This document shows, piece after piece, positions 3,029 to 29,300 of a stretch of DNA of 52,253 bases. How positions within the stretch are numbered: the first letter of the stretch is position 1; every line of letters begins with the position of its first letter. This stretch comes from a virus (Duplodnaviria; Heunggongvirae; Uroviricota; Caudoviricetes). The stretch lies in the IMG/VR virus record IMGVR_UViG_3300011008_000006. One strand, written 5' to 3'. The notes below the pieces were generated by a model. That model had not been told where the DNA came from. It ran no database searches and worked only from the letters and a program-made list of their open reading frames with translations. Both the position numbers and the translations under genes were made by a program.

Positions 3029-3058
3029 TTGACAAATAGAAGCCTTATGTGTTATAAT
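3029..3058 (+). promoter_or_regulatory. sigmaA-type promoter TTGACA-18-TATAAT heading the packaging/virion operon
   Basis: Perfect boxes, A-tract UP element at ~2980-3013. Confidence 0.8.
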
Positions 3059-4378: not shown

Positions 4379-5288
4379 ATGTTAGTAGGAACGTCCAATC
4401 TCATTTTTCGCGCGCACACCTAGTAAATTTTTCCCTGGCCGCAGCCTAATATGTACGCCATGCCTTGAGAAAATGGTGCCGCAAGATAATTTGGGTGAAG
4501 TAGATAGACTTTGCCGCTACCTTGATGTACCATTTGACCTAAATAAATGGACGCAACTTTATAAAGTGCATGGGGAGCATACTTTAACAGCCTATTTTAA
4601 TATGCTTCTGGACGACCACTACGAAGCTCTTCAATGGAGCGATGAAAACGAAAGATGGCGAATAGCTAGAAATGAAGGCACCATTGATGAAGAAATAAAA
4701 GAATTAAATGATGCAAAACTTAAGAGGTTAAAAAAAGAGTGGTCGCCTACTTACGACAAAGATGAACTATTATTCCTTGAAGATTTTTATAATAGTATCG
4801 TCGCATCATAGAACGTTTCTACTCCAATTCTTCAGCACTACGCGCGCGACCTCTGCGAAATTGAATTACGTATTAAGAAGGGGTTGCGTAACGGGGTGGA
4901 TATAAAAAAAGATATGGACGCCCGCGACAATATTATAAAGATAGCCAAATTTGAGGCTTCTAATGCAAAATCCGCGGCGGACTTTGAGTCTGTTGGTGAA
5001 CTTATGGTTTATTATGGTAAAAAAGGATGGCATCCAAAATGGCACATAGAACCTTCCGATTCTATTGATTTCTTAATGCAAAATATTCAAAATTACTTAA
5101 AGCGTTTAGTGCAAAATGAAGGCAACTTTGCTGAATAGGTTGAAAACGCGCGTGAACGCTATAATATGACCGAGCGCCTTGAAGAAATTGAAAATGAAGC
5201 AGTTGAATTTGACGAAACTGCAAACATTGAATATGAAGGTGAGGACGAATTTACTGGCGATTTAGGAAGTGATGACGATGGAGAATGA
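4344..5288 (+). CDS. Putative terminase small subunit-like protein (314 aa, TAG=Gln), N-terminal Zn finger
   Basis: SD AAGGAGG; CIKC...CTPC; acidic tail; immediately upstream of TerL. Confidence 0.6.
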
Positions 5289-7059
5289 ACTTGCCTATCG
5301 TGATAATATTCCTATTGAAAAAGGTGTTGTCCTAACAAAACAATTTTTAGATGATAATAGAGAATTATTTACTACTTATTTAAATCATTGGATATTATAC
5401 CCTGATTTATTTTTAGATGCAATTCAAGACTCTGAAGATGCGAAAAATTTTCATTTATTCCCTTTTTAGCGTATCGCACTTCGCGCTAGTATGCGCTATC
5501 GTCAGCATTTCTGGACGGCAACGCGTGCAACGTCTAAATCATTTACTGCCTATCTCAGCGCGGTTTTGCGTGCGACCTTACTCCCACGCTCTGTCATAAT
5601 GATTGCATCAGAAGTAAAAGGTACAGTTATTAAAATTGCGGAAGCAAAGTTTGAAGAAATTTTTAGGCACTGGCCGCTTTTACGTAATGAATTAAAAACC
5701 CGAGTAGACGATGGTAAAACTGGTATAAAGTCTAGTAGCAACTACTACGAATTATATTTTAAGAATGGTAGCCAAATTACTGTTGTATCAAAAGACACTT
5801 CTCGCGGCTTACGCTCTACCGCGGCTATCCTTGAAGAAGCTGCGCTAATTGAAGAAGTACCATATAATGAAGTTCTACTTCCTCAAATGAACATTAAGCG
5901 TCGTGAAGTAGATGGTACCATAAATCCAGAAGAGCCATCAGCCGCCCAAAACTTTATTACTACCGCGGCAGAAAAAACAGTCTTTATGTATAGTAAAGTT
6001 ATTGAAATTGCAATCAATGCTGTTTTGCGGCCGAAAGAATACTTCTGCTGGGGTCTTTCTTATGAAGTGCCATTACATTATGGTCTTTTAGATAAAGCTA
6101 CAATGTTAGATTAGCGTTATTCTTCTACTATGAGTGAAGAAGCATTTGCTCGTGAAAATTTATCTATCTGGACAGGTAATAATAAAGATGCATGGCTCAA
6201 TAGTAAAAGATTATCAAAAAAACGTACACTTTTAAAATGTGAGCGTAAAGCACAATAGAATCCTGCTAATCCTAAGACATTTTATTTGATAGGAGTTGAT
6301 GTAGCCAGATATTCTGCTAATACGGCGGTGATGGTTATAAAAGTTCTTCCAGGAGTAAATGGATTTAGAAAAAATGTAGTTTATACGGAAGTTATTCATG
6401 GAGCAAATTATATTTCTCAATAGGCACCGCGGCTGAAAAAACTAATTTAGTTATATGAGCCACGCGAAATTGTTATTGATGGTAATGGTCCAGGTATTGG
6501 TTTACTTGACGCGATGGTACTACCATCCTATAATGATATAACGGGTGAACAATTTCCCGCTTATTATACCTTTAATAATGAACATCATTTACCTGTTGAA
6601 ATGAAGGATGAAAAGCCAGAACCACGCCCTGAACTAAATGCAATTATTTATGATATAAAGGCTGGTTCTTCTAATGACGATATTATCCATTCTAACTTTT
6701 TCTCTCAAATAAATAACGGTTCAGTACATTTTCTAGCTCACGAACGCATTGTAAAAGATAAGTTAGTGCTTACTAAAAAAGGTAAGAAAATGGATTTATT
6801 TAGTCGTCGTGAATTTTTATTACCTTATGAAATGACTTCACGTCTTATGGATGAACTTAATAATTTACGCTTAAAGCCGACTGGTATACAAAATTAGTTT
6901 AAGGTAGAACGTATTTCAACCTCTATTGAAAAAGACCGTTTTTCAGCGTTAGAGTATGCTTTATATCGCGTGAAATATTATGAAGATAAAGCAAATAAGA
7001 AAAGTAAAAAACGCGATTTTAGTACTAGTATTCACTTTACTCCAAGGAAAAGGGGGTGA
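5278..7059 (+). CDS. terL: Terminase large subunit (593 aa, TAG=Gln)
   Basis: Q-motif LFPF[TAG]R, Walker A ATRATSKS, Walker B ILEEA, motif C FITTA, nuclease LIGVDVAR and IDGNG. Confidence 0.93.
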
Positions 7060-7064
7060 TATAA

Positions 7065-8618
7065 TTGGAACAAAAAAAGAAATACAACTTTGAAGTATTT
7101 AAAAAACGGATGAAATCTATCGCGCGAGCCCCTATATCTACAAGAACCTATAATAGTCGTTATGGTTGGAAAATAAATGAACCTGTTAGATCTGATTTCA
7201 CTCTAGAAGAAATAAAAGAGATTATTCGTGGTGGAGATATTATTGCTTTACGAGAACTTTCACGTTATTTTTATAGAACTAATAGTGAATATAGAAATAA
7301 TATTGATTTTCTCGCGCATTTACCATTATATGATACTGTTGTTATACCTAATTTTGAAGAAGGTAAGGGTTCTAAAGCATAGATTATAAAAGCATTTTAT
7401 AACGCTTGTAATTTTATAGATAAATTAGATGTTCCAAATACATTCGCTAATATTACTACTGAATGGTTAAAGAATGGTATTTATTTTGGCATTTTAAGAA
7501 TGAATGGTAATAAGCCAGTTATTCAAAGTTTGCCTATTGAATATTGTCGTTCACGTTTTAAAGATTTTAATAATTTAAATATTTTAGAATTTAATTTATT
7601 ATACTTTGAAAGTATTGTTGATAAAGAATATAGAGAGGAAGTAATTGCTTCTTTCCCTGAAATAGTTCAAAAAGCCTGGGCTGAATGGATACGTGCAAAT
7701 AAAAAAATAGACCCTTGGGTTTTAATTCCTGCAGGCGCGGGTGGAATAAGTTTTTTCTTTTAGCATGATTAGACACCTTTATTAATTGCGAGTATTCCTA
7801 CTCTTAAAAAGTTAGATGATGCTATTGGCCGCGAAGAAAAGCGCGATGAAAATGAATTATATAAGCTATTAATTCAGAAAATGCCAATAGATAAAAATGG
7901 TGAACTTGTATTTTAGCTCGAAGAAATTGCAGATATTCATGAGTCTGTTGCCTCTATGCTCCAAGATATTGATACTGTTGATGTATTAACTACATTAGGT
8001 GATACTACTCTTGAAAGTTTACAAGAATCTTCTGCGGCTTCATAGTCTGCGGATAAGATAGAAAAATACAGAAAGAATGCTTGGGATGCATTAGGGCGCG
8101 GCAATATCCTATTCAATCCAGATGGTAGTTCTTCTTTATCATATGCTATTAAAAAAGATGAAGCATTAATGATTGGATATTTGAATATGTATGAAACCTG
8201 GTTAAAATTTCATTTAAATGATAAATTTGCTCGTACTGGGCTTACTTTTGACTTTGAAATAATTCCAACTACTGTATTTAACCGCAAAGATTTACAAGGT
8301 ATTTATTTTAGTGGAGCGCAATATGGATATTCTAAGATGTTTGCTGGCGTTGTAATGGGTATTAAACAAATGAGTTAGTTAAGTCTAATGAATTTTGAAA
8401 ATGATTTCCTTGAAATGTCTATGAAGATGATTCCATTACAATCTTCCTATACTACTCCTGGTGGTGTAGTTGCGGGAGAACAAAAAAATAATTCTTCTGC
8501 ACAAAAAAGTAGTAGTAGCACGGCGAGTGGCAACATAAATAATACAGGAGGGCGTCCATAGCTTCCTGATGAATAGAAATCTGAAAAGACCTAGGCCAAT
8601 ATTGCAGCGGCAGGTTAA
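7065..8618 (+). CDS. Portal protein (517 aa, TAG=Gln)
   Basis: Position after TerL, size, continuous frame from TTG 7065 to TAA 8616. Confidence 0.8.
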
Positions 8619-9890: not shown

Positions 9891-10502
9891 ATGAGCATGA
9901 AAAGATTTCCTTGTGAACAATATGCTAGTCTAGAACTAAATCAAGTAGCATTCCCTAAGACTGGTATGGTTGTTTCTCAAACTCCTCTCGGAGATGCTTT
10001 CACAAAGGACGCTCCTTGTGAAAACGGTATGTGGGTCGTAGCTGATAAGGCTGTTGGCAAAATTAACGCTCCTGCCGCAGTTACTGATGCCCCAATTGGT
10101 ATTGTATATACCACAGAAAAAGAATATGATATTATGCACTATGGTCTAAAGACCTTTGGCCGCAAAGTTGCTGGCGATTATCCTCGTGTTGGTATTTTAG
10201 GTATCGGTGATACTGTAACTACTAATTGCGCTCAATATGATGATAGCGTATTCGCGGCTGTTACTACTGTTGGTAGTGAAAAGACTTCTGATGAAGTACT
10301 AGATGAATATCTATCTGGCGATCTAACCAACACTAATAAGGCTTATGTTGTAATTCCTGCTAGCACTACTCTATCTAAGGCTATTCCTCAGATTGTAAAG
10401 GCTCTACCAAACGGTTATACCGGTGCTTATGGTCGTATTGTAAAATATTACACTGTACCTAATGGCGAAAAAGGCATTAAGTACCAAATGATTAAGGTAT
10501 AA
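9891..10502 (+). CDS. Putative capsid decoration/structural protein (203 aa, no TAG)
   Basis: Strong SD, directly before the MCP, high-expression codon bias (CTA/GCT/GGT). Confidence 0.6.
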   Translation: MSMKRFPCEQYASLELNQVAFPKTGMVVSQTPLGDAFTKDAPCENGMWVVADKAVGKINAPAAVTDAPIGIVYTTEKEYDIMHYGLKTFGRKVAGDYPRVGILGIGDTVTTNCAQYDDSVFAAVTTVGSEKTSDEVLDEYLSGDLTNTNKAYVVIPASTTLSKAIPQIVKALPNGYTGAYGRIVKYYTVPNGEKGIKYQMIKV

Positions 10503-10516
10503 GGAGGTGCGGACTT

Positions 10517-11584
10517 ATGAATAATGATCTAAAAGTTTTAATGAACGGCGTATTTGGGCGTAAAGTTCCTGCTGAGTTCGCGGCCGCCGATTATGATTAT
10601 GAAGCTGCTCTTCGTGATGAATTAAAGAAGTTATTATGTGATGATAGCGGCAAGTTCAACCGTTATAAGTATGAACGCAATAAGATTGACCTATTTGAAC
10701 TATTATCTCAGAATTTAGATGAAGTATTACCACAAAGTCTAACTTCTGCTCTAGATATGTTCACTGAAATTATGCGTGTACCCCAGGGTTCCCGCCCAGA
10801 GTTCCGTGTGACTCGCGGCAAGCAACGTGGTAAGCAATTCGTTACCCGTGCTACCGAATCTGGTAACTACGAAACCTTCCGTCTAGACCGTGATCGTTTT
10901 GACATCCATATCTTCGCTATCGGCGGAGCTGGTGTCGTAGACTTTGAACGCTACCTAGATGGCATTGAAAATATTACTGATATTTATGAAGTAATTAATG
11001 AAGGTATGGTAGACCGCATTTTTGAATTAATTCAAGAAATGTTATTATCTGCTTGGAAGAAGATGCTTCCTGCTAACAAGGTTGTTGGTAGTTCTTTCAG
11101 TCCTACTGCTATGAAGAAACTTTGCAACACTGTTGCTGCTTATGGTTCTCCTGTAATTTACTGCTCTGCTGAATTTGCGGCTGAAATGGTAAATGCTATT
11201 ACCTACAACAATACTACAAAGATTTCTGACCAAGATGTAATTGATATTCGTGAACGTGGTTATGTTGGCAAGTTCCAGGGCGTACCTGTCGTAATTATGC
11301 CACAATCTTTCACTGATGAAACCAATACTAACCTAGTAATGAATCCTTCCTTTGCTTATGTAATTCCTACTGGCAAGGAAAAGATGATTAAGTTAATCTT
11401 TGAAGGTAATTCTTACTTCCGTGAATGGAATGACCATGAAGGAGACAATTCTATTACTCTACAAGCCTACACCAAGGTTGGTCTAGCACTAGTATCTCCT
11501 CTCAACTTCTGGGGCATCTATTATAATAGTTCTCTAGATACTAATACTAACTGGGCTGCTTACAACGCAACTCTAACTGCTTAA
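10517..11584 (+). CDS. Major capsid protein (355 aa, no TAG)
   Basis: Size, position, SD AAGGAGG, HK97-like pattern (GKFQGVPVVIMP), followed by a strong hairpin. Confidence 0.85.
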   Translation: MNNDLKVLMNGVFGRKVPAEFAAADYDYEAALRDELKKLLCDDSGKFNRYKYERNKIDLFELLSQNLDEVLPQSLTSALDMFTEIMRVPQGSRPEFRVTRGKQRGKQFVTRATESGNYETFRLDRDRFDIHIFAIGGAGVVDFERYLDGIENITDIYEVINEGMVDRIFELIQEMLLSAWKKMLPANKVVGSSFSPTAMKKLCNTVAAYGSPVIYCSAEFAAEMVNAITYNNTTKISDQDVIDIRERGYVGKFQGVPVVIMPQSFTDETNTNLVMNPSFAYVIPTGKEKMIKLIFEGNSYFREWNDHEGDNSITLQAYTKVGLALVSPLNFWGIYYNSSLDTNTNWAAYNATLTA

Positions 11585-11591
11585 TATATGC

Positions 11592-11621
11592 GGGCGGGCG
11601 AAATACGCCCGCCCCTTCTTT
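11592..11621 (+). terminator. Hairpin GGGCGGGCG-aaata-CGCCCGCCC after the MCP (partial terminator or stabiliser)
   Basis: Perfect 9-bp GC stem, weak U-tract. Confidence 0.8.
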
Positions 11622-11644
11622 GGAGATAAAAGGAGGATATTATT

Positions 11645-12082
11645 ATGGATAAAATTACTATTAAAAACATTTGCAATGCAACAGTTGCTCTATTTGTGCC
11701 TGATGCAAAACTAAGCCGTGAATTACCTTCTGGCCGTACCATCAATGTAGACAGAGAGACCTATGAAGCTCTTACTTTTGACCAAGGCTTTAATAACCTA
11801 GTAAATCTACATTATCTTCAAGTTATTGGATTAGAAGAAGATGAAGTAAAGGTAGAAGGCGATATCACTACCAAAGAACAAATTGACAGAATGTTAGACA
11901 CACTAGACATTACTGCATTTGCTAAATTTATTCCTAATGCCGCTCCCGCAGAGAAAGAAACTGTAGTTGAACTCGCTGTGGAAAAGAAGATTACTCATTC
12001 TGGCTTTGTAAGTCTAATCAAGAAATATTGCGGCAGAGACGTAATGGATCTTATTAATACAAAGCATCAAGAGGAAGATTAA
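11645..12082 (+). CDS. Hypothetical head/neck-region protein (145 aa, no TAG)
   Basis: SD AAGGAGG; intact ORF. Confidence 0.8.
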   Translation: MDKITIKNICNATVALFVPDAKLSRELPSGRTINVDRETYEALTFDQGFNNLVNLHYLQVIGLEEDEVKVEGDITTKEQIDRMLDTLDITAFAKFIPNAAPAEKETVVELAVEKKITHSGFVSLIKKYCGRDVMDLINTKHQEED

Positions 12083-12084
12083 CA

Positions 12085-12567
12085 ATGGCAACTCCATTTT
12101 TGCGAGTTTATGATGCCTTTTTAGGTCGTATAACTGCAGATGAATGGACTTTAGAAGAAGAACTAGCCATTGTTGAGCGGGATTGGCAAGAACTTCTTCA
12201 AATGGCTATTTTTAGATTTAAGTATCCTCGTGTAAGTTTAGAAATAGAACAATTAGATGAAGAAGAAGGCGAAACCTCGCTTCATAGATACTAGTTTGTT
12301 AGTAATTTAACAAATGATGAAATTCAATTACTTGCGTTATATATGAAGCATGAATGGGTAAAAAGATGTATCGCAAGTTGGGAAAATATCCGTTAGTTGT
12401 ATGCTGATAAAGATTTTTCACAAGCAAATCATTTAGATAAATTAAATAAATTAGAAGCAGCGATTGCTTTAGAAGTTCATAAAGCGGAGGGTATCTACGA
12501 CCGTTCGCGTTCTAAGCGCCCCGCTGATTTATTTAAAAAATTGGCAGGTAAAAAACATGCAAATTGA
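12085..12567 (+). CDS. Putative head-tail connector/adaptor (160 aa, TAG=Gln)
   Basis: Helical protein at the adaptor position; frame open through TAGs to TGA 12565. Confidence 0.6.
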
Positions 12568-12832
12568 TCAAACCTTTGATGGATATAGAAATAAACTAAA
12601 AGGTCGTCTATATGGGTTGCTTTGTGAAAAAGAAAAAAATGGCGAATGGGAAAAATTCTTAGATTCTATTATTATAGAGCTAAGAGGTCTTGGTGCTAAT
12701 TCAATAAATTGGTGGCCGCTGATTGGAAAGCTATCTTCATTACGATATTTATCTTTTGACTATTTTAGAAAAACGATATTTGAATGTATGAATTTAGTTG
12801 GCGGATTAGATATACCAGATGAATTATCTTGA
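12557..12832 (+). CDS. Hypothetical neck-region protein (91 aa)
   Basis: Intact ORF overlapping both neighbours. Confidence 0.75.
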   Translation: MQIDQTFDGYRNKLKGRLYGLLCEKEKNGEWEKFLDSIIIELRGLGANSINWWPLIGKLSSLRYLSFDYFRKTIFECMNLVGGLDIPDELS

Positions 12833-14033
12833 TACTTACTTTTCGCGTATAAACCATTTGGGAGAAACAACGGCGGAGAGAATTAGGAATGGTGGAATAC
12901 GCTCTTTCTTCAAGTGGATGGCGGAATCTCCACATACAGTTAGATAGTTATCTATTGAACGAGGATTATTTTTTGATGCTATTATTTTAACTAGTAAAGA
13001 CAAGGAATATTAGAAAATAATGTTTTTAAATGTAGCAAATAATATTCCTCTTGTTGTAGGAGATATAATGAACTGGCGGCTTAAAGATGGAAGCATTGAA
13101 AAATGGCTTCTATTTTCAGAAGAAAAGAAGGTTAATCCCACATATCGTACATTCTGGATGGTAAGATGTAATTATCTTATTAAATGGATTGATAATGAAG
13201 GACATTTACAATCTTCTTGGAGTTATATTGTTAGTTCCCTTGATTCTAAAATTAAAGGTAATTATAGAACTTGGCACTCATTAATTACGCCATAGCCAAA
13301 TAAATATGCTGAAATTTTAATGCCGCGGCGTCAAATTGACCGTGCGACAAACTTTATAGTTGAAGAAGAATCTTGGCAATTAATAGAATACGATCACACA
13401 AGCGTGCCAGGAACAATGTACTTATCTCTTACTGAAAATAAAATTAACACTATATATGATGATGTTGAAAACGAAATTGCTGATTTAGATAAACGGGCCA
13501 GGTATGAACTTGTTTTGCCACCAACTACTTAGGTATTTCATATTGGAGAAGAAATTAATCCAACTTTTACTATTATGAAAAATGGTGTACCAGTACAAAT
13601 GGAGACAGAATTTATTACACAAGATAAATATGTAGCTCGTATACAAAACGGTGTTTTAACCGCGGTCGGTGAAGGAGAAACTGATATTCGTGTTGTATTG
13701 AAAGATTGCACGGATATTGATCCACAGGACTTATTTATTCATATTGAGGTTGGCGCGGTGGATACTACTTTTTCTTGTTATATTGAAGGAAAAGATAAAA
13801 TTCGTTTAGGACATATAGAAACATATGTAGTATGTAGCACTTCAGGAGAAGTTATAGATGAAGTTATATTCTCTATTGATTATCCTGAATATGCTAATAT
13901 AGTAGAAACAGTAGATAATACTACTTGTAAAATATAGGCTAATTAGAAGAATAAACTTGGTATATTTACTTTAACTGCATAGGTTGGAGCAAATACTTAT
14001 ACAAAAACAATCCAAGTTGTACCAATATGGTGA
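12819..14033 (+). CDS. Putative head-closure/neck protein with C-terminal Ig-like domains (404 aa, TAG=Gln)
   Basis: Three ORF-track fragments joined by TAG; VARIQNGVLTAVGEGETDIRV resembles a Big_2 Ig repeat. Confidence 0.65.
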
Positions 14034-14043
14034 GGTGGTTTGA

Positions 14044-14562
14044 ATGGCTCAAGAGACACAAAGACGCTTTGCCGTAATGGGTGATAATGCTTTTAAATTA
14101 GCAAATAAATTAGTTAGTAATGAAAAATTATGTCGCTTATTAAAATATCAAACAAGAGATCCATTAAAAGAGACTGACCCAATTACTGGGAAAGCTCAAC
14201 CAGATATTGATGGAGTAGATTTACTACATAAACAAATTTTAATTGTCCCTAAAGTATTTGATGATAGTACAGAAAAAATGTCTTATGTAATAGCCGTATT
14301 TCATAGCTTTGTTGTAAATCAAATGAACTCTGAATTTAAGGTTTCAACAATTAGATTTGATATTGCTTGTCCTTATGATGAATGGGTGCTGAATGATGTA
14401 TCTTTGCGTCCTTATCTTATTATGTAGGAAATTGATACTATGTTCAATGAAGCTAAAATGGCTGGGATTGGTACTTTACAATTTTGGCGTGCTGACCCAC
14501 TTGCTTTAACACCTTATATTGGCGGCTATTCTATGTATTATAAGATAAATGAATTTAACTGA
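14044..14562 (+). CDS. Putative tail terminator/completion protein (172 aa, one TAG)
   Basis: Position before the tail tube; TIRFDIACP beta strand typical of terminators. Confidence 0.55.
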
Positions 14563-15331
14563 TAATGAGATTCTTAAATTTCAAAAAGGGTCTCCTATTT
14601 TATTAGATGATATATGTGCTATTTATCCTGCTACTTTAGGGGAAATTGTAGATGAAGGGTATGATAATTTTTAGAAATATTTAGGAATTATTACTGCTAC
14701 AAAACCTATTATAACAGGTAAAGAAAAAGACAATGAATTTGTTTAGTTATTAAAACAATTAACTGATTTTCAATATCTATTAATGACTGCTTCATTTGAT
14801 TAGGAAGTAAATCGTTTATTGAAATTAGCTTTTAAATTTTTTACTCATGAAGATATTTTTATTTCGCCAGAAACCGCGCAAATTATAATAGGTCCTCTGG
14901 CAGAGCGACACATTCTTACTGAAGAAAAATTTTAGGAATTTTAGCAAATTATTAAGCGTATGTATTTTCTTGAAACTGAAGGAGAAGAAATTATTTTAAG
15001 AGATGATGATACTCCATAGGTAAGAAGATTAAAATTACAAATGCTTGAAAACCGCGAAAAAGTACGGCGCGCGAAAGCTAAATAGGCTTAGCAAGAAAAA
15101 AATGACTTAAAATTTTCTGATTATGTTGGTAGTATGACTATCAACAACTGCGGGCTAAATATGGAAAATATTTGGCGCATTACTTATTATGCTTTTCACG
15201 ACCAGCTAAAAAGAATGGGATGGCGTGATTAGTTTAATATAAACAATCAGGCCGCGATGGCTGGTGCAAAAATTAAAAAGTCTCAATTGAAGCATTGGAT
15301 GCGTTCCATTGCAGACTCTAATAAATCATGA
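14549..15331 (+). CDS. Hypothetical tail-region protein, possibly chaperone-like (260 aa, TAG=Gln), absent from the ORF track
   Basis: Open frame apart from TAGs, TGA at 15329. Confidence 0.7.
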
Positions 15332-15354
15332 TTTATTATAGGAGGTAACTAACT

Positions 15355-16332
15355 ATGGCTGTAAATATTTTTGATAAATATGGCATTAAGGAAGTTGCTA
15401 ACGTATACTTTGAAGCTCTCGAAACCGATGAAAAAGCTGGCGTATACGCAGGCGACATCGTTCTATTCCTTGATACTCTAAAGGTTTCTACTATTGAAAC
15501 TACTGCTGAAAATACTGCTGCTCAAGGCGGTTGGGGTAATCCTAAACTAGTACAGTGGGACTATGGTAAGGAAATTAATATTACTCTAGAAGATGCTCTT
15601 ATGTCACTAGAATCACTACGTTTTATGCTTGGTGGTGCTATTAAGAGAACTGTAAGTGCTTCTGAACCTATCATTGTTCGTCATACTGAAGAAGTTGTAT
15701 GCAAAGCTGGCGGTGCATTACCTGTAATTAAGGATCACTTAACTGGTATTGCTCTAACTCCTGTAGCGAAGTTTGGTCATCCAATCCGTCTAATCAACTT
15801 AACTAAGGGTACTCGTACTCAATTAGAACCTGCTAGTGCAGAAGCTGCTGATATTACTCTAGCTGAAAATTCTGTTGTAACTTTCAAGAATCCTAAGATG
15901 ATTGATGGTGAAACTCAAGTAGCAGAAAAAGACGACCACATCCGTATCTTCTGGGAAGAAGTACTAGATGGCGATAGTGACCCTGAAACTGCTGTTGAAG
16001 TAACTATTTCTCCCGATACCTTCCCTGGAACTTATAAGGTTGTAGGCGATACTTTTATGCGCTCTGAAAAGACTGGTAAAGATGAACCATTCCAGTTCAT
16101 TATTAACAAGGCTAAGGTACAGAGCAATGTTACTATTACTCTACAAGCTGAAGGCGATCCTTCTACCTTTGAAATGCAGTTAAACGTACTACGTTCTACC
16201 AACGAACGTGGCGAAAATGAAATGATGAAACTTGTTCGCTACAATGTAACCGGCGATACTACTTCTGGTAGCGGCGATGATAAAGGTTCTGTAGCGGCTA
16301 GTGGAAGCGGCTCTGGCGGTGGCAATCCATAA
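15355..16332 (+). CDS. Major tail (tube) protein (325 aa, no TAG)
   Basis: SD AGGAGG, high-expression codon bias, beta-rich, AQGGWGNPKL and AEGDPSTFEM motifs, downstream terminator. Confidence 0.8.
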   Translation: MAVNIFDKYGIKEVANVYFEALETDEKAGVYAGDIVLFLDTLKVSTIETTAENTAAQGGWGNPKLVQWDYGKEINITLEDALMSLESLRFMLGGAIKRTVSASEPIIVRHTEEVVCKAGGALPVIKDHLTGIALTPVAKFGHPIRLINLTKGTRTQLEPASAEAADITLAENSVVTFKNPKMIDGETQVAEKDDHIRIFWEEVLDGDSDPETAVEVTISPDTFPGTYKVVGDTFMRSEKTGKDEPFQFIINKAKVQSNVTITLQAEGDPSTFEMQLNVLRSTNERGENEMMKLVRYNVTGDTTSGSGDDKGSVAASGSGSGGGNP

Positions 16333-16344
16333 TTTTAATATAAT

Positions 16345-16379
16345 CTAGGGGCAGTAAAACTGCCCCTAGTTCTTTTTTT
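16345..16379 (+). terminator. Intrinsic terminator CTAGGGGCAGT-aaa-ACTGCCCCTAG-T-rich
   Basis: Perfect 11-bp stem plus U-tract. Confidence 0.9.
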
Positions 16380-16398: not shown

Positions 16399-17286
16399 AT
16401 GATTGACCAATATTTTGGTGTAAAAGAATTATATGAAGTTGTATTGCGTGCGAAAGTACCAATGCAATTTGGCTCTCGTTATATTGAGGAAGGAGAGCCA
16501 GTCTTATATTTTGAAAATGTAAGTATGGCCTTAATTTCTGAAAAATAGTCTCCTATTATGGCCCGCGGTGGTTGGGCAAACTTGCCGCGAGTAATATGGG
16601 AAGATAGGTCAGAAGTTAGTTTTTATATGTCAGAAGGAGTTATGTCTTCTATTAGTATGAGCGTACTTTTAAGTGCGAATGTTGCTAATGAATAGTAGAA
16701 TGATACTCCTCTATTAATTCCTAAACGAGAAGGGCCATTTGAATTAATTGAAAAAGAAATAGATGGTACTATATACCATGTATTATATATAAAAAATAAA
16801 CCAGTATACTATCCTCAAAAAAAGATTTTTATTTTTGAATATACTCGTGATGTAGTATAGAAAAAAGTATATGGTAAATAGTTAGACATAAACGATCCAC
16901 TTGGACGTACTTGTTTAGCAATCTATGAAGATAAAGAATTATAGCATAATGCAGATATTGATAAAGAATACCTAGTGGATTACTACTATGAATATGGAGA
17001 TAAAGCGTTAATATATACTGTGTAGAAAGAACGCTTTAATGGATTATTCACTCTTGAGGGTAAGTTTTACTCCAAGGATGAAAACGAAGGCTTAAATTAT
17101 ACAAATTTAATTTATATGCCGAAAGTGAGAGTTGTAAGTGATATAAACTTACGCTTGGGAGAAAGGGCTGATCCAGCGGTATCAACATTTAATATTATCG
17201 GGCTACCAGAAAATGTAGGCGGTAATAAGAAGAGCTTAATTATGGAAATAACTCGTCTAAATAGTGATGAAGACGGTGATATTTGA
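16399..17286 (+). CDS. Tail-tube paralogue/minor tail protein (295 aa, TAG=Gln), absent from the ORF track
   Basis: FGVKELYEV, ARGGWANLPRVIWED and ADPAVSTFNI parallel the tail-tube motifs. Confidence 0.75.
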
Positions 17287-17356: not shown

Positions 17357-20300
17357 ATGAATTAGGGTAGTATTACAATGGATATTAGAGCCAGAATAAC
17401 AGGGTATCAAGAAGCGATAGCAAGAATGAAAGCTGAATTTGCTAAAGTTGATCCAGGCTCTGATATTGGTAAAAAGTTAGCTAGGGGTATTGAAAGTGCG
17501 GAGCAATAGTTAAAATAGTTAGGTAAAAATTTAACTCCTAGAGTAACTAATGAAACATAGATTGATAATGTAGTACAAAAGGTCAATAATTTAGGTGAAT
17601 CTATATAGACTGTTGTAAGAATGATGCAAACAGTTACTGACGCAGATTTAACTAAAGGTGCTTTTGGTAGCGGTATTTAGCAATTTTAGGCTTAGATTTA
17701 GTCATTAGAAGCAGAATTAGAAGGGAAATTAGCAGTAGGTATACGTGAAGCTATATAGAATTTTTATTTATTAAGAAGTACGTTTGAAAACATTCTAAAT
17801 ATAGATATTACGGATAAATCACCTGATGAATTATTATAGATATTATCTGATTCCGCTAAAACTGCTTCTAAAGATTTGGCGAAAGTTAATAAAGGGATAG
17901 AAGATTTAGAAACTAATATAGCTTCAAAAGAAGCCACTAAATAGAAAGATGAAGCAGGTTTATTTGGTACTTTTGCTAGTAGAGATTAGTTAAGATAGTA
18001 GGTTGAATAGTATACTTAGGAATATGAAGCTATTTTTGCAGATTTAAGAGAGCGTTTAACTACTGGTTTAACTGCTAAACTTGGAGATGGGGCTTAGACT
18101 CAAACTTTTATTAATTAGTTTTTTGAAGGTTTAACTCCTGATAATTTAAAAGATAGAATTACTTCTTTGTATAATTCTTTGTCTGGATTAGGCACATATG
18201 CTTAGAATCAAAAACGACAATTTTATAAAGAAATTTTTGGGTTTGATAGTAGAGACATTTTATATTTAATATAGGATATAAATTTAGGTGACCCCGCGCC
18301 AGTAATTGAAAAATTTAGACAATTTTTAGATACTATTGCCTCTGAAATTGGTGGGGGTGAAAAATCAAAAATTGTTGATTTGTTAAATAATTAGGATATT
18401 GATGCTGCCGCGGATTCAACTATTAGAAATATAGATTCTGCTTTTAGAAAAGTTTAGGCAAGAATTTAGAAAGTACAAGATGAGCTTATTGCTTTATTAA
18501 ATTAGAAAACAAATAAAGTAGAAGAGAGACGAGATATCGAAGGTGCTGGTATTTCAATTGAATCCGCAAGAATATAGATAGAAAATGAATTAAAAACTTT
18601 AAGAGAACAAAATGCGGATTTATAGAAATAGATTGATGAATTGAATGCTAAAATAAAAGCAGAAAAGTAGAGTGTTGTTGATACAGTTCATCATAATGTA
18701 GAAGATAGTGGAAGAACAGCCGCTCAATTTGATTTTGATAGAGATGCTGCATAGAAATATAAAAATCAATTGCAGAGTGTAATTGAATCAGAAAAAATGC
18801 TTGGTAAAGTTGAAGGTGTAGCATAGCGTTGGTTTTCTATTTATGCCGCGGTGAGAATGGTTAGTAATGCTATTAAATCTATGATTTCAACCATTAAAGA
18901 ATTAGATAAAACAATTACAGAAATTGCAATTGTAACTAAAATGGATTAGTCACAATTATGGGATTAGATGGGTTAGTATACAGAAATTGCTAGAGAATAT
19001 GCTGCATCAATTTCTGGGGTATATAAAGTTTCACAACTTTATTATCAATAGGGTCTTGAACAAGCAGATGTAATGGCTCTAACAACTGAAACTTTAAAAA
19101 TGGCTCGTATTTCTGGTCTTGATTATGCTGAAGCAACAAATTATATGACAAATGCTATTCGTTCCTTTAAAATGGAAATGGCTGACGCATAGAGAGTTGT
19201 AGATGTATATTCTGCTATCGCCGCGAGTTCCGCTACAAATGTTACTGAATTAGCAAAAGCTATGAGTAAAACTGCTTCTTCTGCAGAAGCCGTAGGTTCA
19301 AGTTTTGAAAATACAACTGCTATGATGGCAGTTATGATTGAAGCTACTCGTGAATCCGCAGAAAATATTGGTTCTGCTTTAAAATCAATTATTTCTCGTT
19401 ATGGTGAAATGAAAGCTGATTCTTCTAAATTAATAGATAGTGAAGGAGAAGCAATGAGTCTTAATAAAGTTGATACCGCGTTATAGACTGTTGGTATTAG
19501 TATTCATGATGCTGCGGGCTAGTTCCGTGATTTTGATGATGTAATCATGGAATTATCTGAAAAGTGGAATACTATTGATAAAAATACTCAAAGATATATT
19601 GCTACTATTATGGCTGGTAACAGACAGCAATCTCGTTTCTTAGCGTTAGTATCTTCTTATGATAGATTAAAAGAGTTAAGTGCAGAAGCTGCAGATAGTG
19701 AAGATGCGGCACAATTATAGTATTTAAAAACATTAGATAATGTTGATGCTAAAATTCAATAGTTATAGACTAGTTTATAGTCATTATATACTGGGACTGG
19801 TATGCAAAATTGGTATAAATGGCTTATAGATGCTGGTAAGTCTATTATAGATAATTTAGTTAATTTACAAACCTTTTTTAAATTACCTATTCCTGCGATT
19901 GCGTCTATTGGCAGTGCGTTTTGGAATATGGTTAATATTGTTAAAACAGGAGTAAAATTTTTAGAATCTGTTTTTAGATTATTAAGAAATAAAATTATCG
20001 CAGAAGCAAAAATAGAAGCAAGTAACCGAATTAATAGTGAAATAAATGCTGAACAAGAAATAATACACAGTTTATAGAATTCACATTCACAACAATTACA
20101 AGAAGAACGAAATTTTTAGTAGTAGCGTATAGGAATAGTACAAGAAACTGCTGAACAAATTTAGGCAATAAATAATGGTATTAGTACATCTTCTTAGACT
20201 CAATAGTTAAATCAAAAAACTGGTTTGTTAGGTGGAAACTTAAAGAAAAATGCTGGTTTAAGTGTTGGGTTAAGTGCTACAAGTTTAGCATTGGCAGGTG

Positions 20301-23300
20301 TTGCTTCAGTAATGCCTGATCGTAAGGCGTAGGGCTGGCTTAATGTTGGTAGTTCTGCTGCTTCTGGCGCGGCAATGCTTTCTATTTTGGGACCTGAGGG
20401 AATGGCCATTGGCGCTGTTGGGGGAGCAATCTTAGGTTTTGTTAATAATCTTACGAATATTTTTGAGTCCGAAGAAGAAAAATTAAAAACTTTAGAGGAA
20501 AATGCAAATAATGCAAATAATGAATATATATAGAAAAAATCTAATACATAGAATTTATTTACTCAAATTGAATAGTTAAAAAAATTAGAAAAGGCAAGAT
20601 ATGATAGTAAAGAAGCGGAAGAAGAATACTATTAGGCTACTAATTAGTTTGCTGATACATATCCGGATTTAATAAAAAATTTAGATAGTGCTGGTAATGC
20701 AATAATTGATTTGAATGCAGCAGAAATAGAATTAAAAAATTCTAGAAAAGAAAGCACTGAGGCAGCTTTAAAGGCGGCATAGGCTAATTATAAAGCAGCG
20801 GAAAAGAGAGAAAGTAATGCTGAAAATGAATGGAATAAATCAAAAGATATTGTAGATAATTAGCTAACATTGCATGAGTTATTTTTAAATTCTTATATTG
20901 ATAAAATATATGATGATAAGAATTTTTCTAGTTTTAATATTGGAAAAGATGTTTTTAAAAGTATTTATGATAATTATTCATTAGGTTTTAAAGACCCAGC
21001 AAGATCAATGGCTATTCATTCATCTATGAAACAAGAAGATATAGAATTATTTTTTGAAGAAATAGAAAAGATTTATAATCAAGAATAGGGATTTATTGAT
21101 GCTATTAATGATAATGAGGACATTGCTCCAATTAGAAATGCATTAAGTAAGAAAAATAATAATGAAAAGGTAAGTAAAGAGATTAATGAAAAATTACCAT
21201 CATTAGAAGAACAATATAATGTTAATGATGTTTTTAATACAAATCCAGCCATTACTACTTATTTAAATTATGTTAAAAATTTAATGGAAGATTCTACTAA
21301 TTAGAAATTGTTGCAAGAGCAAGAACGGACCAGTCAAATTGTACAAGCGGATATCGCAAAAACCATTGGTTCTTCTTTAATAGGAATACAAGATGAATAT
21401 TTAAATGAAATTGTAGATATTACTGGTTTTATGACAGAATAGGCATATTTAGCTTTTTAGAATTTTGAAGGAACTAAAGACGAATTTTTTAAACAAGATA
21501 ATTGGGATAGTTTAATGATAGACTTGCAAATATTTTGGAAAAATTTTTGGAATTCTTTTGATCTTTCTGCAGATAAAATTAAATTTAATAACTTATTAAA
21601 AAATAATCAAAATATAAGTCGAAGTAAAATGGAATAGTATTTACTTACTATTCCTAAATTAGAGGAAGAAGCTCGAAATTCTATCCTTTCATATTATTAT
21701 GATGATACTTATAATTTTGATAAATTTAAAGATAGATATAATAATAATAATAATATTCCTGTCATAACCCCTCTTGATGAAGAAATTAATAAAGATAATG
21801 ATAATATTTTATAGGAATTAGGAAGCAATGAGTTATAGGTAATTAATGCTTTTAATGATGAATTAATGTCCTTTATTCAAAGTAATAATTATGCAGAAGA
21901 TGATGCTAATCTTGTAATGAGCAATTATTTAAATATAATAAAAGCATTAAAAGATGATGAAATTGCTTAGGCAATTTTCTTTGGATGGGATAGAACATTA
22001 AATGGATTATAGGATGTTAAATAGTAGTTAGAAGAATTGGGTTATACTAATCTTGATTTTAGTTATTTAATGCAATTACCAATAAATATTAATACAGAAC
22101 TTAATTCTTACGTTGATTCTCTTGTTTCATAGTTAGAAGATTTTGAAAAAGTATTATCTAAGGTTTCTAAGGGAATGGATATTAAAGATGCTATGGAAAT
22201 AGCTAATAAATTAAATATTTCTATTAGTGAATTTAATTTTAAAGATGGAAAATTTTTCTTTAAAGAGACGGAAAGAATATAGAATGCATATATAAGTTAT
22301 AGCGATGATTTATTTGGAAGAATATCAGAAGAAGCTAATAATAGAATTAAAAAACTAGAAGAACAAGAAAGTTTAACAAGTGATGAACGTAAAGAATTAG
22401 AAAATTTAAAGAAGTAGGTAGCTGACATTAAAGTATTAAAAGATAATTATGTAAAATATCAAACTAATGCATTAAGAATTTAGAATGGATAGATAATAGA
22501 AGTATTAGCGGAAATTGCTGGAAATGATTAGGCAAATACTTTATATACTCAAGCTTTGCAAGGAGATTTTACTAATTTTACAGGAGAATTGTCTTAGTAT
22601 GTCTCAATAATAACAGATACTTTAAAAGATGCAACAGATATTGTTATAGATGCGGCAGTAAGCAGTATAAAAACTGATAAAGGAGTATATATCAAGGCTT
22701 CTGAAGCTAATCAAAATTTGATTTAGTCATTAGTTTATGAAAACCTTGCAATTTATAATGATGAACTTGAACAATATTTGATAACTGTTACAAAAGATAA
22801 TTTTGATGCTTATGTAAAAGCGATTAATGATACTGAAGGTTTAACAGATTTATAGAAAGCAGATTATATAAAGCAAGGTTGGGATGCCACTTATTCTGAT
22901 AATTTAATTAATATTTTTACTTCTTTTACAAGTTCTGCAACAGTAACCCGAGAATCCGCAGATAAATTTGTACTTGCACTTGGTCATACTATTAAAGAAA
23001 CTACTAAATTAATGACGCAATGGGGTTATGAATTAGATGAAAATACTGGAGAATTTAAAGCAACAGGTAAAAGTATACAAGAATTATAGAAACTATTAAA
23101 ATAGTCATTAGAAGAAAATGCTTCTATAGAGCAAATAAATAAAATAAAAGCTCAAATAGATACATTAAGGTCATAGTAGCAATTAGATTTATCATCTGCT
23201 TTAAAGGATGTATTTTCTAATTATAAGTCTATTACAATAGCCTAGAGAGAAGCATTAGCAAATGCCTTAAAAGAAGATTATGGCACAGTTGTACAATATT

Positions 23301-26300
23301 TAATAGATAATGGAAATGGAACTTATTCTTTAAATATTGGAGAATTAAGAAAAGCATTAAAAGAAGGAACAATATAGGTTGGCTCTGCTACTGAAAATTC
23401 TTTAAATGAATTAATTAGTGGAATTATTGATGATTATTTAGATGCAATTTCTTCTGGAATTGGATATACAACTTCTGGTTTAACTAAATAGGCTGATATG
23501 CGTAAGTTTGTTAATGATTTTAATAATAAATTAAAAACAACTTATAATATTAGTGATTTATTTAGTTGGGACACTATTTTAGAAGCGTACACTTTAAAGC
23601 CTGAATATTTATCTCAATATATCGCTAAATAGAGAGAACTTTTAAAAACAGAGTTTGATAATGATGCTGATGTTGATAAATATATTGAAAGTCAATTAAA
23701 ATCTATTACTTAGGCAGTTGATATTTCTAGTTTCTTACAATCTGAGAATATGTAGAATAATAGTCGTTCTCGTAAGGTTCTTGAAAATTAGATGAGAACA
23801 GCATTAAGTATTCAAGCTAACTGGAAGTAGGCCAAAGATTATATAGATGAGGCTATAGATACACTTGCTTTTGGAGCTGGCGGAAATTATGAATTAATTT
23901 ATGAAGAAGCTTGGAAAATAGCTACTGAAGAAGCAAATAAATAGAATGAAAGAATTAATAATGAAATAAATGCAGAAGTAAAAAATGATTTATCTAATTT
24001 TGAAAAAGGCGGCAAAGCCGCGGTTGAAATACTTAAAAAGTATGCTGGCGATCGTGAATTAACTGCTGAAGAAATTGAAGCTGCATACCGTATTCGTTTA
24101 AATAATCTTTCTCAAGCATTTGAATCTATTGCTACATTGCAACGTGGAAATATAGTTGATTAGAATACTCGCACTATTTTAAATAATATAAATGGCTTTT
24201 TTGTAGATATGAATGGAGTTGTACTTGCTGTAGGAAATATGGTTGATGCTTATAGAGAAATTTATGAGCAAATGAAAGATACTTCTATAGCAACAACTTC
24301 TGAATTAAATAGTGCTTATGCTCAATTATTAACTGCACAAGAACAAGATGAAATAAATGCTATTGAAACTCTTGGAAATGCTATGGGTATGACATATGAG
24401 ACATTAGGTCAATTACTTAATCAATATAATATGTCACTTGAAGCAGTTATTAATAATAAAGATAAATTTGGTATTGAACAACTTGGAACTGGTAAAATTC
24501 GTATTAATGATTTCAAAAAATTTGCCACGCAAATGGGTTGGAATCCTAATAGTGAAGAATATTGGAGTGCATTTAAGACTTATAATGATTCTTTAATTGA
24601 GTTAAATAAAAACACTAAAACAGCTATTGAAGATGAAGTTAAATCTTTAAAAGATGTTAAAGGCGGAGATTAGATTAATTTAACTAGTCTTTGGAGAGGA
24701 CTTAGTAAAGTAATTCAAAAAGAATTAGAAGAAGTAGCTAATAATTTTTAGTTATATGGTTATGAAGGATTGGCTACAGAATCATTATTTACTAAATTAT
24801 CAGAATTTGGAGCATCTTTTACAAATGGAATATTAACTTTAGATACTAATGCCAATATTATTTAGGTTACAAAAATATTAATTGATTATGCAGAACAGGC
24901 TGGAATTGCAATAACAGAAGAAATACAAGATACTCTTTAGAGTATAATAAAAGCATATTCTGATGCAATTATTAAAGGTATTCAAGGTGAAATGACTAAT
25001 GTTGAAGCCGCAGATTTATAGAATAAAGCTTTATCATTAGGTATTTCTAAAATTGATTTTACTACAACAACAGATGGGTTAAAATTATCTTAGTAGTCTG
25101 CTATTGAATTATATTATGCTTTAAGTAATATTGATAGTTTATAGGCACAATTAGTTTTTAAAGAATTAAATGAATCATTAAAAGAAAGTAATGAACATTA
25201 TCAAACTATGGGTTCTTTAATGATCCATATCAAAGAATTATAGGATGCTATTAATAATGCTGATTCTTAGACCAATTCTGCTCGTATACAACAATATAAG
25301 TAGGAATTAGAATTGGCTAAAGATATTGCAAAAGTTCGTCTTACAACAGAAGATTCTTCATTTGATTTTATGTCTGCTGATTTAAATGATGCTTTAAATA
25401 ATGCTCCTAAATATTATGAAGCTTGGGCTAAGGCAACAAAATCTGTAACTGAGGCGGCAGAAAATGGTTATATTGGTTGGGAAGATTATGCTAGAATGAT
25501 AAATGAAATTTAGAATTTAGCTGTTCAAACTGGCCATGATATGTTATTTATGGGTTAGACAATAAAATCGGATGGTACTTCTGCCGCGAAACTTATTGAA
25601 GATGGATATAAAGCATTAGATATTGATATAGAATCGGGAACTGCGGTATTAAATTTAGATACCCTATTAACAACAACTGGACTAGATTTTAAGCAAGGTG
25701 CAGAAGGTTTCAGTACGACAATAGATGATGGAATTAAAGAATTTGCTTAGGGACAAGTAAAAATGTTAGATGGCATGATTCAACTTCTTGAAACTATTGT
25801 TGCAATGGAATAGCTTGGAGATATTGATGCCGATACATTTAGTTTTTTTGATGGGGAAGATTTTTCTAAAAATTATTAGAATTTTATTAATTATGCTACA
25901 AAAAGTATTTCTGATGGAAATACTGATTTAGAAAAAGCATTTAATAATACTAAAATTAATGGGAAAACATTAACTGAATTAATAGGAATGTCTCCTGATG
26001 AATTAAGGAAGTATGATAATGATTTCTAGAAAGCTTATGCTAATGTATTAATAGCATTAAATAAAGCTGCTCAATCTGGAGATTGGGATACTGCCTGGAA
26101 TGCTATTAAAGAATAGCTTGCTGCTAGTGGAGTAAATGGATTAGAAATAGACTTAGATAATGTACATTATGTCTTTAAAAATGGCATAATGTTAGAAGAA
26201 AATGAAAAAGGATTTATTTATAATGGGAAAACTTATAATACTAGTGATGAAGCTTGGTTAGCAATAGTAACTGGTAATATTACTGCTCTTCAAGGTATGG

Positions 26301-29300
26301 AAGTCGTAGCTAATGATGGTCATACAATTAAATATGTTGGTGATTATGAAATTGAAATTGCTTATAATGAAGCGAATATGACATATATAGCTACTACTAA
26401 AGATGGTACAGTATTAACAAGTAGTACTAAAGAAGGTTTAGATTACGCTATTCTTGCTTGGGAAAAAGTTAATAATAAAGAATCTCAAGAAAATTCTGAA
26501 ATTACTGATGAACCAATTACTTTTGCTATTAAAAAAGACGCAGAAATTCTTGTTAATATTTCAATAGATAAAGAAGGAGAACTTGTTAAAAATGATAAAA
26601 ATGAACAAGTAATTAATGATGCTTATGCTTCTGCTATTGATGAATTATAGGAAGAAATAAGACAAAAGACTACTGGCACAACTATTCCATTAGAAACAAC
26701 GGCTAATACTTAGGTTTCTAATACTATTTATATAAATGTAAATTAGTTAAAACTTAAAGGTAAAGATGCTGATATTGGGTTTGCGGAAGGAGAAGAACCA
26801 ACTAAGCCGGCGAGTTTAGAAAATGCAGATGCTAAGCCTAAAAAAGTTAGTCTTTTAGAAAGTGGTTCACTTGCATTGTCTGATGCATTTAAGCAATAGG
26901 TAGCAAATAAAGATTTTGATTTTGAAGAAGGTAAAGGTCATTTTAGTAGTGCAAAAGTAGGATTTTTTCAAAATGGTGGAGCTTTAAATCATGCACCTAA
27001 TGGGTCAATAAATACTTCTGACGCATTAAGTACTATGAAAGCATTAGCAGATGCTAAACTTGCAGCATCTACTTTAGGAACGGCTGAAAGTCAATATTCA
27101 GATGGTCATGCTACATTACCAGAAGATGCTAATGTTACTAATGATACACCAGAGATAATTGAAAGTAAAGTTCCTAAAAATTATAGTTTAGGTCAGGCAC
27201 TAGCTACATTTGCATAGTTAATGGTTGGGTTACCTAATAATAAATTTTATGGAAGTGGAGATCCTCAATCTGGCGGTGGAAAAGTTTTTGATACCCATAA
27301 AATAACTGAGGCTTTGAATACTTATAAAACTTCTTTAGGTACTCCTTCAGAAAATGGGGCATTACAGGCTTTGTTTTCTGCATTAGGAATTGATATGAGT
27401 ACAAAAGAGGGTACTCCAAAAGGCAATTTAGCTGCGTTTTTAGCCAGCAGAGAAATTACACCTGAGCAACAACAATTATTTTGTAATTTTGCTTCTTTAA
27501 TGGTTGACCTTTTAAAGGATTCATAGGGTTAGCCTACTGTTAAAGGTGTGAAAGATATTGAAACATTTATACAGACATGTCTTGCAACTGAATTAAGTGG
27601 AGAAGAAATTGATGTTTTAATAGGTATTATTCATGCTGCTTTAGAATCTGGTGCGCCACTTGATGGATCAAATGCAATAATATCAGGAGTAAGAAATAGA
27701 TTAGCTAATCTTGGTCTTGAGGAAGAAGCAATTAATGCAATAATTAAATATATTTAGGCTAACACAAATAACGATACTTCATTAAGTGGAAATATTACTG
27801 ATATAAATTCATTACGAGAAGAAATAATTACATTACTTGGTGGAGAAAATAAAAGTATTACAATTGGCACAATTGATGCAATTATTGCTGGATATAATCT
27901 TATTACTGATTCTAAAAATAATCCTAAATACTATGATGAAAAAGGAATATTTAAAAATATTGAATATGAAGAAGATATTGAAGTAAATAGAAAAATTTGG
28001 GAAGATTATTTAAATGACGTATTTTCAACTGGAAATATTAAGAATTTAGAATTAGCAATTTCTATGATTGATTTACTAGCTGGATTCGGTGCTGTAGATG
28101 AGGATGGTAAGTTTATTTTTGGCCCACAAGCTGGTCAAGCAACTCTTAGTGCATTAGGGTTACGTTGGGAAAATGGAAAGCTTACTACTACTTTTAATGG
28201 TGATACAGTTATTGATTTAGGCACTCAAGAAGGTAAAGTATAGTTATCAAAGCTTTCAGCAGAAGGCGCCCAAATAGAAGGTGTTGAATTAAAAGAAATG
28301 ACACTGGATGATGGGCAAGTATTACGAGTAGCAGATATTTCTATTGTAGACGATGCTGGTAATAAATATGTAGCTAGAGTAGATGCAGAAGCTTTTATTA
28401 ATGGTATTGGTGGAGATAATTATGATCCAAAAACCCAAAAATATAAGTTAGACAATTTAACTATTGATGCATTAATTAATTTATTAGATTTAGGAGAAGG
28501 CGCTTGGAATGATTGGGTTGATAAGAATATTCATTCTATTCAAGTTACTCCTGAATTATAGTCTTTCCCTTCCGCTGAAGAGGCTTGGGATGCTTATATT
28601 CAAGCACACTCTGATTTAGGTACTGCTGAAGTTCCAGAAACTACAGAAGGGGGAAAATGGACTACTCGTTATTTAGAAGCTATACACGAGGCATTTATAG
28701 AAGCATATAATACTGATCCTGTAGGTACTGTAAATCGGGTGAATCATCCGGATATGTTTACTGATAGTTCTTCAAATTATCTTTGGTTTTTTGATTCAGG
28801 AATTAATGAGTAGTTTATAAAGGAACTAGATCAAATTAAAGCTGATGCAGAAGCATTATAGCTACAAGAAGCTATTATTTCTACAGAGCAACAGTATATT
28901 AATAATCCATATGTACCTAATAATAAAAATAAATATTTTACATTTGTTACTAATGGTAATATGGATTATTCCTCTACTCTTTCTGAAATTTGGGGCTAGA
29001 AAGGTTTATATACTGCATTAGATAGTCTTGATGATTTATTTAATTATTTAAATGGAGATACAGAACAGTTACGCAATTTTGTTAGCAGTGAATTATTACA
29101 AGAGCTGGCACAAGCATTAAAAAATGCAGATTTTTCTCATCGTATAGAAGAAATTTTATCTGAATTTCTTCCAAATGAAGACAATAAAGAAATTAATTAT
29201 TCTACAGAAGGAACTCCAGTTGAAAGTCCTCTAGAGGGGCATGATGAAGAAGTTCCTATGCATGATACAGAGCGTGCTAGATATGAACAAATTATAAATT

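Follow-up and report, generated by a model that had tools for sequence, protein, structure and literature searches.

The closest known counterparts of the locus analyzed here are the code-15 gut phages (Borges et al., bioRxiv 10.1101/2021.08.26.457843; Peters et al., PMC9523058; Phass-1, PMC10607447), in which, likewise, TAG is read as glutamine (Gln) in the structural genes, and the early genes adhere to the standard code. The emphasis in these papers is on the timing of lysis and of the late genes, and the tests covered families enriched in TAG, namely, lysis genes and a crAss tail tube family, as well as TAG depletion in integrases. According to Borges et al., selection may enrich or deplete recoded codons depending on the family. 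A TAG-free capsid is implied, without comment, in the Phass-1 paper, and in a crAss-like phage of Segatella copri (bioRxiv 10.64898/2026.08.21.746148), the lack of alternative codon use in the major capsid gene has been credited to pressure for efficient translation. Outside the phage world, in Blastocrithidia (mBio 2025, PMC12153298), in-frame reassigned stops are distributed non-randomly, being depleted in highly expressed genes and tracking the codon adaptation index, a pattern that the authors, who included expression data, read as translational burden. Here we describe a 52,253-nucleotide (nt) stretch of the IMG/VR virus record IMGVR_UViG_3300011008_000006 (hereinafter, the window, that is, this stretch in its entirety), which contains a late gene module with reassigned TAG codons. 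Four genes of this module, those for the major capsid protein, the tail tube protein and two proteins of 203 and 145 amino acids (aa), lack TAG altogether. This avoidance is conserved in the phage family, is linked to codon bias, and does not depend on the amino acid that TAG encodes. We consider it likely that these genes are kept free of TAG by translational (codon-usage) selection, with a reassigned stop codon as its target.

Under translation table 11, the plus-strand block at 3029-39506 is shattered, but it becomes a contiguous late operon once TAG is treated as a sense codon. The genes for TerL, the portal, the tape measure and others are broken by in-frame TAGs under table 11 and intact when TAG is read as Gln, and the PHROG matches cover the restored open reading frames (ORFs). 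This is a code-15 (TAG-to-Gln, hereinafter TAG=Gln) late module, in which in-frame TAGs interrupt conserved late genes. As judged by gene layout only, the late genes are presumably transcribed together. In the four TAG-free genes, none of the 28 Gln codons is TAG, compared to 257 of the 547 (47%) in the thirteen other late genes. The first-pass annotation of the window had reported zero TAG in the 203-aa, capsid and tube genes, a single TAG in the protease/scaffold-like gene, and many in their neighbours; all of this holds, as do the gene coordinates and lengths (Table 1), although the 145-aa gene was overlooked.

The same annotation raised the concern that the Gln codons might be too few for the zeros to count. 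Taken one by one, the genes are indeed only marginal, with binomial probabilities at 47% TAG use of 0.022 for the 203-aa gene (0/6), 0.0018 for the capsid, 0.079 for the 145-aa gene (0/4) and 0.006 for the tube. Jointly, however, the probability is 1.9e-8, and the Fisher test yields 3.6e-8 when the comparison is with all TAG-using late genes and 1.3e-6 when it is with the head and neck neighbours only. When codon avoidance was pooled over seven TAG=Gln genomes, TAG made up 2 of the 170 Gln codons in high-copy genes versus 404 of the 956 in low-copy genes (p=4e-33), and in the capsid genes of 40 representatives of the family, the count is 1 in 531. Chance is thus a negligible explanation. The tube gene (0/8) even comes with a natural control, its TAG-using paralogue (7/10). 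Off-frame TAG is equally common in the TAG-free genes, at 12-16 per kb, so the avoidance concerns the codon rather than the trinucleotide, which rules out a restriction site or another trinucleotide-level cause.

The pattern extends far beyond a single genome. Two scans of IMG/VR with the capsid produced 85 loci with 64-94% capsid identity, which were dereplicated to 73 representatives. Forty of these clearly are TAG=Gln, five are TAG=Gln but use little TAG and may be at an incipient stage of recoding, in three TAG is aligned with glutamate (Glu), and 25 use the standard code. TAG avoidance is replicated in 43 recoded relatives. The family-wide counts (TAG among the Gln codons of the 40 dereplicated TAG=Gln representatives; Table 1) are graded in the order of expected copy number, from the capsid and the 203-aa head protein to the tube, the scaffold and the rest. 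The first-pass annotation had asked whether capsid homologues in recoded phages carry TAG freely; evidently, they do not, and this is the case also in Phass-1, a member of a different genus with 33% capsid identity. In Phass-1, TAG is absent from the capsid (0/15), scaffold (0/28) and tube-like genes (0/14 and 0/15), compared to 30-45% of the Gln codons in the other structural genes.

At conserved Gln positions, the history of the capsid gene can be followed codon by codon. Eight of the eight conserved-Gln columns of the capsid are polymorphic between CAA and CAG among the recoded genomes, with no TAG in 141 codons, and the commonest codon in these columns is CAG, which is one transition away from TAG. 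By comparison, 10-11 of the 12 conserved-Gln columns in the portal and TerL carry TAG in some genome. Given this turnover between CAA and CAG without TAG, the avoidance does not stem from slow protein evolution, and the mutational opportunity existed.

Because standard-code (25), TAG=Gln (45, counting the five that use little TAG) and TAG=Glu (3) representatives coexist in the family, exchange of the TAG-free genes with standard-code relatives, with imports that keep resetting these genes to the TAG-free state, has to be considered. Some trees bear the mark of such exchange. The 203-aa gene of the window and of the relative L001 is sister to that of the standard-code L005 (support 95/97), and L006, a TAG=Glu phage, has a capsid gene that falls inside a TAG=Gln clade (100/99); neither grouping agrees with the portal tree. 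It appears, then, that TAG-free head genes can cross code boundaries. Nevertheless, practically every one of the 43 recoded representatives shows the avoidance, as does Phass-1, the capsid Gln codons have turned over inside the recoded lineages but never to TAG, and recombination explains neither the general codon bias described below nor why swapping would be restricted to high-copy genes. As the cause of the pattern, we regard it as highly improbable.

The meaning of TAG was assessed by rendering it as X in alignments of 12 late-gene orthologue sets and reading the residues of four standard-code relatives at the TAG columns of the window. These residues are Q in 93 cases, E in 14 and K in 14; at columns that are at least 90% conserved, there are 14 Q and one E. 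Given this excess of Q, TAG encodes Gln in this phage, and TAG/(TAG+CAA+CAG) is the right measure of its use. In contrast, three close relatives (L004, L006 and L081, with capsids 79-90% identical to that of the window) appear to read TAG as Glu. In L004 (IMGVR_UViG_3300021399_000108), TAG falls at conserved columns with E in 14 cases, D in one and Q in none, and in L006 (IMGVR_UViG_3300031994_000011), with E in 32, D in two and Q in none. The genomes of L004 and L006 encode a CUA tRNA of a different kind, in which the acceptor end (GGC start, A73) is Glu-like, at L048:846-920 and L049:6071-6144. In the literature searched, no publication describing TAG=Glu in phages was found. In L004 and L006, the four genes still avoid TAG compared to the others, now relative to the far more numerous Glu codons (0/72 vs 112/306, p=6e-13; 1/84 vs 48/265, p=2e-5), so the cost attaches to the codon, not to Gln.

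The 84-kb record of this phage, which is 44% complete, contains no tRNA gene. In each of the four recoded relatives examined, of which three are complete and the fourth is about 93% complete, there is a single CUA suppressor gene and no release-factor gene. Two of the TAG=Gln suppressors have unusual structures. The tRNA at L050:8570-8659 (genome of L014) is 90 nt long, and its long variable arm is a hairpin with a loop that resembles the Gln (CUG) anticodon loop, and the tRNA at L052:6911-7179 (genome of L015) is detected only if a 177-nt intron is allowed. A single phage family, with capsids at least 64% identical, encompasses the standard code, TAG=Gln and TAG=Glu. The code types are interleaved on the gene trees, which implies that the code has changed repeatedly and recently or that suppressor tRNAs have been swapped.

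Avoidance of TAG is embedded in a broader codon bias. In a principal component analysis of relative synonymous codon usage from which the Gln codons were left out, the extreme of the first component (30% of the variance) is occupied by the 203-aa gene, which ranks the highest, and the tube, capsid and 145-aa genes, with the scaffold coming fifth; across the late genes, this component correlates with the TAG fraction (rho=-0.72, p=3e-4). Together with the graded family counts, this Gln-free bias supports the suggestion of the first-pass annotation that TAG is selected against in abundant virion proteins. In the seven pooled genomes, the codon most avoided by the high-copy genes is CGA (0/232 vs 111/1183), TAG comes second, and CTG, TCG and ACG (NCG), ATA, GGG and TTG are avoided as well, whereas CAG, CTA, AAG, TTC, ATC (NNC) and CGT are favoured. 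The bulk virion genes make heavy use of CTA, a usually rare leucine codon (213/439 vs 239/2017 in low-copy genes). The relatives encode tRNA-Leu(UAG) and tRNA-Arg(ACG), which fit the favoured CTA and CGT, but also tRNAs for the avoided AGA and ATA. The standard-code relatives show the AAG and NNC bias in their orthologues of the capsid, the head protein and the tube, and the bias therefore predates the recoding. Altogether, orthologues from different lineages, those of the standard-code and TAG=Glu relatives included, retain the bias despite synonymous turnover. Taken alone, the fraction of pyrimidine-ending codons predicts TAG use poorly, because C-richness is shared by two upstream genes that are rich in TAG.

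Codon bias is also informative with respect to timing. The TAG-free late genes could be translated before the suppressor tRNA accumulates, or have to stay translatable without it, amounting to an early/late split hidden within the operon. The early replication genes are indeed TAG-poor (DNA polymerase, 0/46; NrdD, 1/29), and the GC-rich hairpins that are found 3' of the capsid, tube and tube-paralogue genes could, in the case of the capsid and the tube, bound separate transcripts. However, the early genes lack the codon bias whereas the TAG-free late genes are the most biased in the window, which implies two separate reasons for lacking TAG and supports the view of the first-pass annotation that the pattern is distinct from an early/late split. 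Furthermore, TAG-rich genes lie between the TAG-free ones, at spacings of 11-60 nt, and no strong promoter-like site precedes the latter; prohead assembly requires the TAG-rich portal; and the tolerance of some TAG by the scaffold and the 145-aa gene family-wide makes the pattern graded rather than on/off. The hairpins fit transcript-level boosting of the bulk genes, without proving separate timing, and the one immediately downstream of the capsid gene may be a partial terminator or a stabiliser of the mRNA 3' end. All told, a timing explanation appears quite unlikely.

The first-pass annotation suggested, further, that TAG load sets subunit stoichiometry. Under such dosage control, the number of TAGs per gene would be tuned, and incomplete suppression would throttle the low-copy proteins. 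The sharp difference in TAG use between high-copy and low-copy genes and the family-wide ranking, in which the capsid, tube, scaffold and remaining genes line up as their expected copy numbers would predict, are compatible with this proposal. Its more specific expectations are not borne out. The TAG fraction is uniform over the 13 TAG-using genes (chi-square 13.1, df 12, p=0.36), even though these range from the non-virion TerL through the 12-copy portal to the few-copy tail-tip proteins. The ratio TAG:CAA:CAG is 257:267:23, that is, the parity of TAG and CAA expected of neutral codons with equal G+C content. Finally, the sites vary among relatives, with the TAG count of the portal ranging from 2 to 16 and nearly every conserved-Gln column polymorphic between TAG and CAA/CAG. 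The combination of a uniform fraction, parity with CAA and variable sites resembles drift in the low-copy genes and purging in the high-copy ones, so that tuning of TAG numbers is very unlikely. A related possibility, with slightly better prospects but still improbable, is that limiting decoding by a single odd suppressor tRNA is used as a throttle, such that the low-copy assembly, packaging and tail-tip proteins are tied to the suppressor supply and the bulk lattice proteins are exempt. If so, recoding would have a dosage role beyond timing.

Translational selection, the explanation that we favour, would operate as follows. In the low-copy late genes of this SPbeta-like siphophage, TAG would be an effectively neutral synonym for Gln that drifts to parity with CAA, whereas in the most-translated genes, purifying selection would purge TAG along with other poor codons (CGA, CTG, NCG, ATA, GGG, TTG). 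Decoding of TAG presumably depends on a single phage suppressor tRNA(CUA), which would have to outcompete release factor 1 (RF1) of the host; each TAG would then risk slow decoding or a truncated subunit, at a cost that scales with the number of copies made. Competition with RF1 is plausible as the specific cost, which may arise from slow decoding or from truncated, assembly-poisoning subunits. That the TAG-free genes are highly expressed is suggested by the homology of the capsid and the tube to YonB and YomU and by gene order.

Several considerations weigh against this interpretation. The high copy number of the 203-aa and 145-aa proteins is surmised partly from their codon bias, which introduces circularity, and the 'optimal' codons are defined only internally, not against a host tRNA pool. 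The sequence bears no direct mark of RF1 competition: the base after TAG (+4) is no different from the base after CAA or CAG (p=0.28), and outside the tape-measure gene TAG is not shifted toward gene starts. The strength of Shine-Dalgarno sequences fails to separate the TAG-free genes from the TAG-using ones. Besides, related genomes are not fully independent samples.

Table 1. Features of the window, with TAG codons given as a fraction of all Gln codons in the window and, family-wide, in the TAG=Gln representatives
Feature	Position	Strand	TAG/Gln, window	TAG/Gln, family	Remarks
Sigma/HNH-like gene	first in late operon	+			placed by gene order
TerL	5179-7059	+	7/20		comparator
Portal	7065-8618	+	9/21		comparator
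Protease/scaffold-like gene, 412 aa	8630-9868	+	1/16 (codon 75)	61/682 (8.9%), intermediate	C-terminal half acidic coiled-coil
203-aa head-module protein	9891-10502	+	0/6	1/255	directly 5' of capsid gene
Major capsid protein, SPbeta YonB type, 355 aa	10517-11584	+	0/10	1/531
GC-rich hairpin, 9 G-C pairs	11592-11614	+			immediately 3' of capsid gene; consensus scan only
145-aa protein	11645-12082	+	0/4	6/121	codon-biased
Neck and head-completion genes	12085-15331	+	2/7, 1/4, 8/17, 1/8, 9/19		interleaved comparators
Tail tube protein, SPbeta YomU type, 325 aa	15355-16332	+	0/8	3/217
Terminator-like hairpin, then T-run	16345-16369	+			3' of tube gene
Tube paralogue	16399-17286	+	7/10		PHROG 2729, as tube gene; no codon bias
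Giant tape-measure-like gene, 4915 aa	17357-32104	+	148/314		PF10145 domain at residues 546-751
Two large distal tail genes	downstream of tape-measure gene	+	16/30, 32/57		placed by gene order
Replication and nucleotide-metabolism genes (dUTPase, NrdD/NrdG, 1326-aa DNA polymerase, RecJ)	from 39858 on	-	nearly without TAG
Other late orthologues				2004/5101

Among the TAG-free genes, homology provides predicted identities only for the capsid and the tube. In tblastn searches, the capsid matches the capsid genes of Kirov, Sundance, SPbeta-like phages and Phass-1, and ESM Atlas assigns it to PF27364 YonB at 0.98; the tube is assigned to PF27173 YomU_Tube at 0.97, belongs to PHROG 2729 and has weak matches to tail tube proteins in a PDB profile search (E=0.0045). 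The PDB profile search of the capsid matched nothing, the Pfam version searched directly has no model for the TAG-free genes, and the AlphaFold2 models of the capsid and the tube, built from shallow alignments, have pLDDT values of 43 and 45, too poor for a fold search. For the 203-aa protein, there is no Pfam, PHROG or PDB match; it had been called a decoration protein, and whereas its coordinates, length and lack of TAG stand, this identity was a guess from gene order, as would be a scaffold role. The 145-aa protein has no family match in Pfam, PHROG and PDB profile searches. In the scaffold gene, an internal start of the lambda C/Nu3 kind, located 3' of the single TAG, was considered and rejected: it has no convincing ribosome-binding site, and the TAGs of the relatives occur in both halves of the gene.

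Some features of the surrounding genes deserve mention. The first third of the tape-measure-like ORF (17357-32104) is the most TAG-rich, at 60%, dropping to 33%, and a tail of extreme length would be expected if the entire 4915-aa ORF served as the ruler. At 3029-3058, a perfect extended sigma-70 consensus (TTGACA, 18 nt, TG, TATAAT) coincides with the predicted start of the first late-operon ORF, so the true start of this gene is probably further downstream. Two minus-strand genes within the otherwise TAG-free early arm use TAG freely, a RuvC-like resolvase (39106-39858; 6/15) and a GIY-YIG homing-endonuclease-like gene (41292-42266; 13/25), the latter echoing the recoded homing endonuclease of Borges et al.

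The code-15 gut phages share with this one not only the partition of codes between structural and early genes but also the presence of suppressor tRNA(CUA), here in the relatives, and the existence of close standard-code relatives. The difference is that the studies of these phages include no test of TAG avoidance in abundant virion proteins. In the timer model of Borges et al., the late genes are gated collectively by recoded codons, with the strongest enrichment in lysis genes. In the window, the early genes are TAG-poor; the bulk late genes, being TAG-free, are not gated by the recoded codon; and no lysis genes were identified.

The observation on the crAss-like phage of Segatella copri comes from a single genome of an unrelated, podovirus-like lineage, with no statistics, relatives or link to codon bias. 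The likeness to Blastocrithidia is that reassigned stops are avoided in highly expressed genes; the setting is different, a eukaryote with a genome-wide code change, a mutated eRF1 and cognate tRNAs, compared to a phage that recodes only its late genes in a standard-code host in which RF1 presumably is intact.

The pattern is real and conserved, but it is most likely a case of ordinary codon-usage selection, a further instance of a known principle rather than a new mechanism. What it implies is that a reassigned stop is not a fully equivalent sense codon in phages, its cost being large enough to be visible to selection in the most-translated genes, and this qualifies a timing-only view of phage recoding. 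For annotation, a practical rule follows: in a recoded phage, the genes for the capsid and the tube have the appearance of standard-coded ones, and predictions of the code can be misled by them. A further prediction is that structural genes lacking TAG can pass from one phage to another even if the codes of the two differ.

Under classical translational selection in low-GC bacteria and their phages, highly expressed genes avoid NCG, ATA, AGG/CGA and GGG, and prefer NNC, CGT and T-ending four-fold codons. Here, likewise, a small set of bulk proteins is biased. Unlike in the classical case, however, the most conspicuous avoided codon is a reassigned stop, for which failure may take the form of termination, not only of slow decoding.

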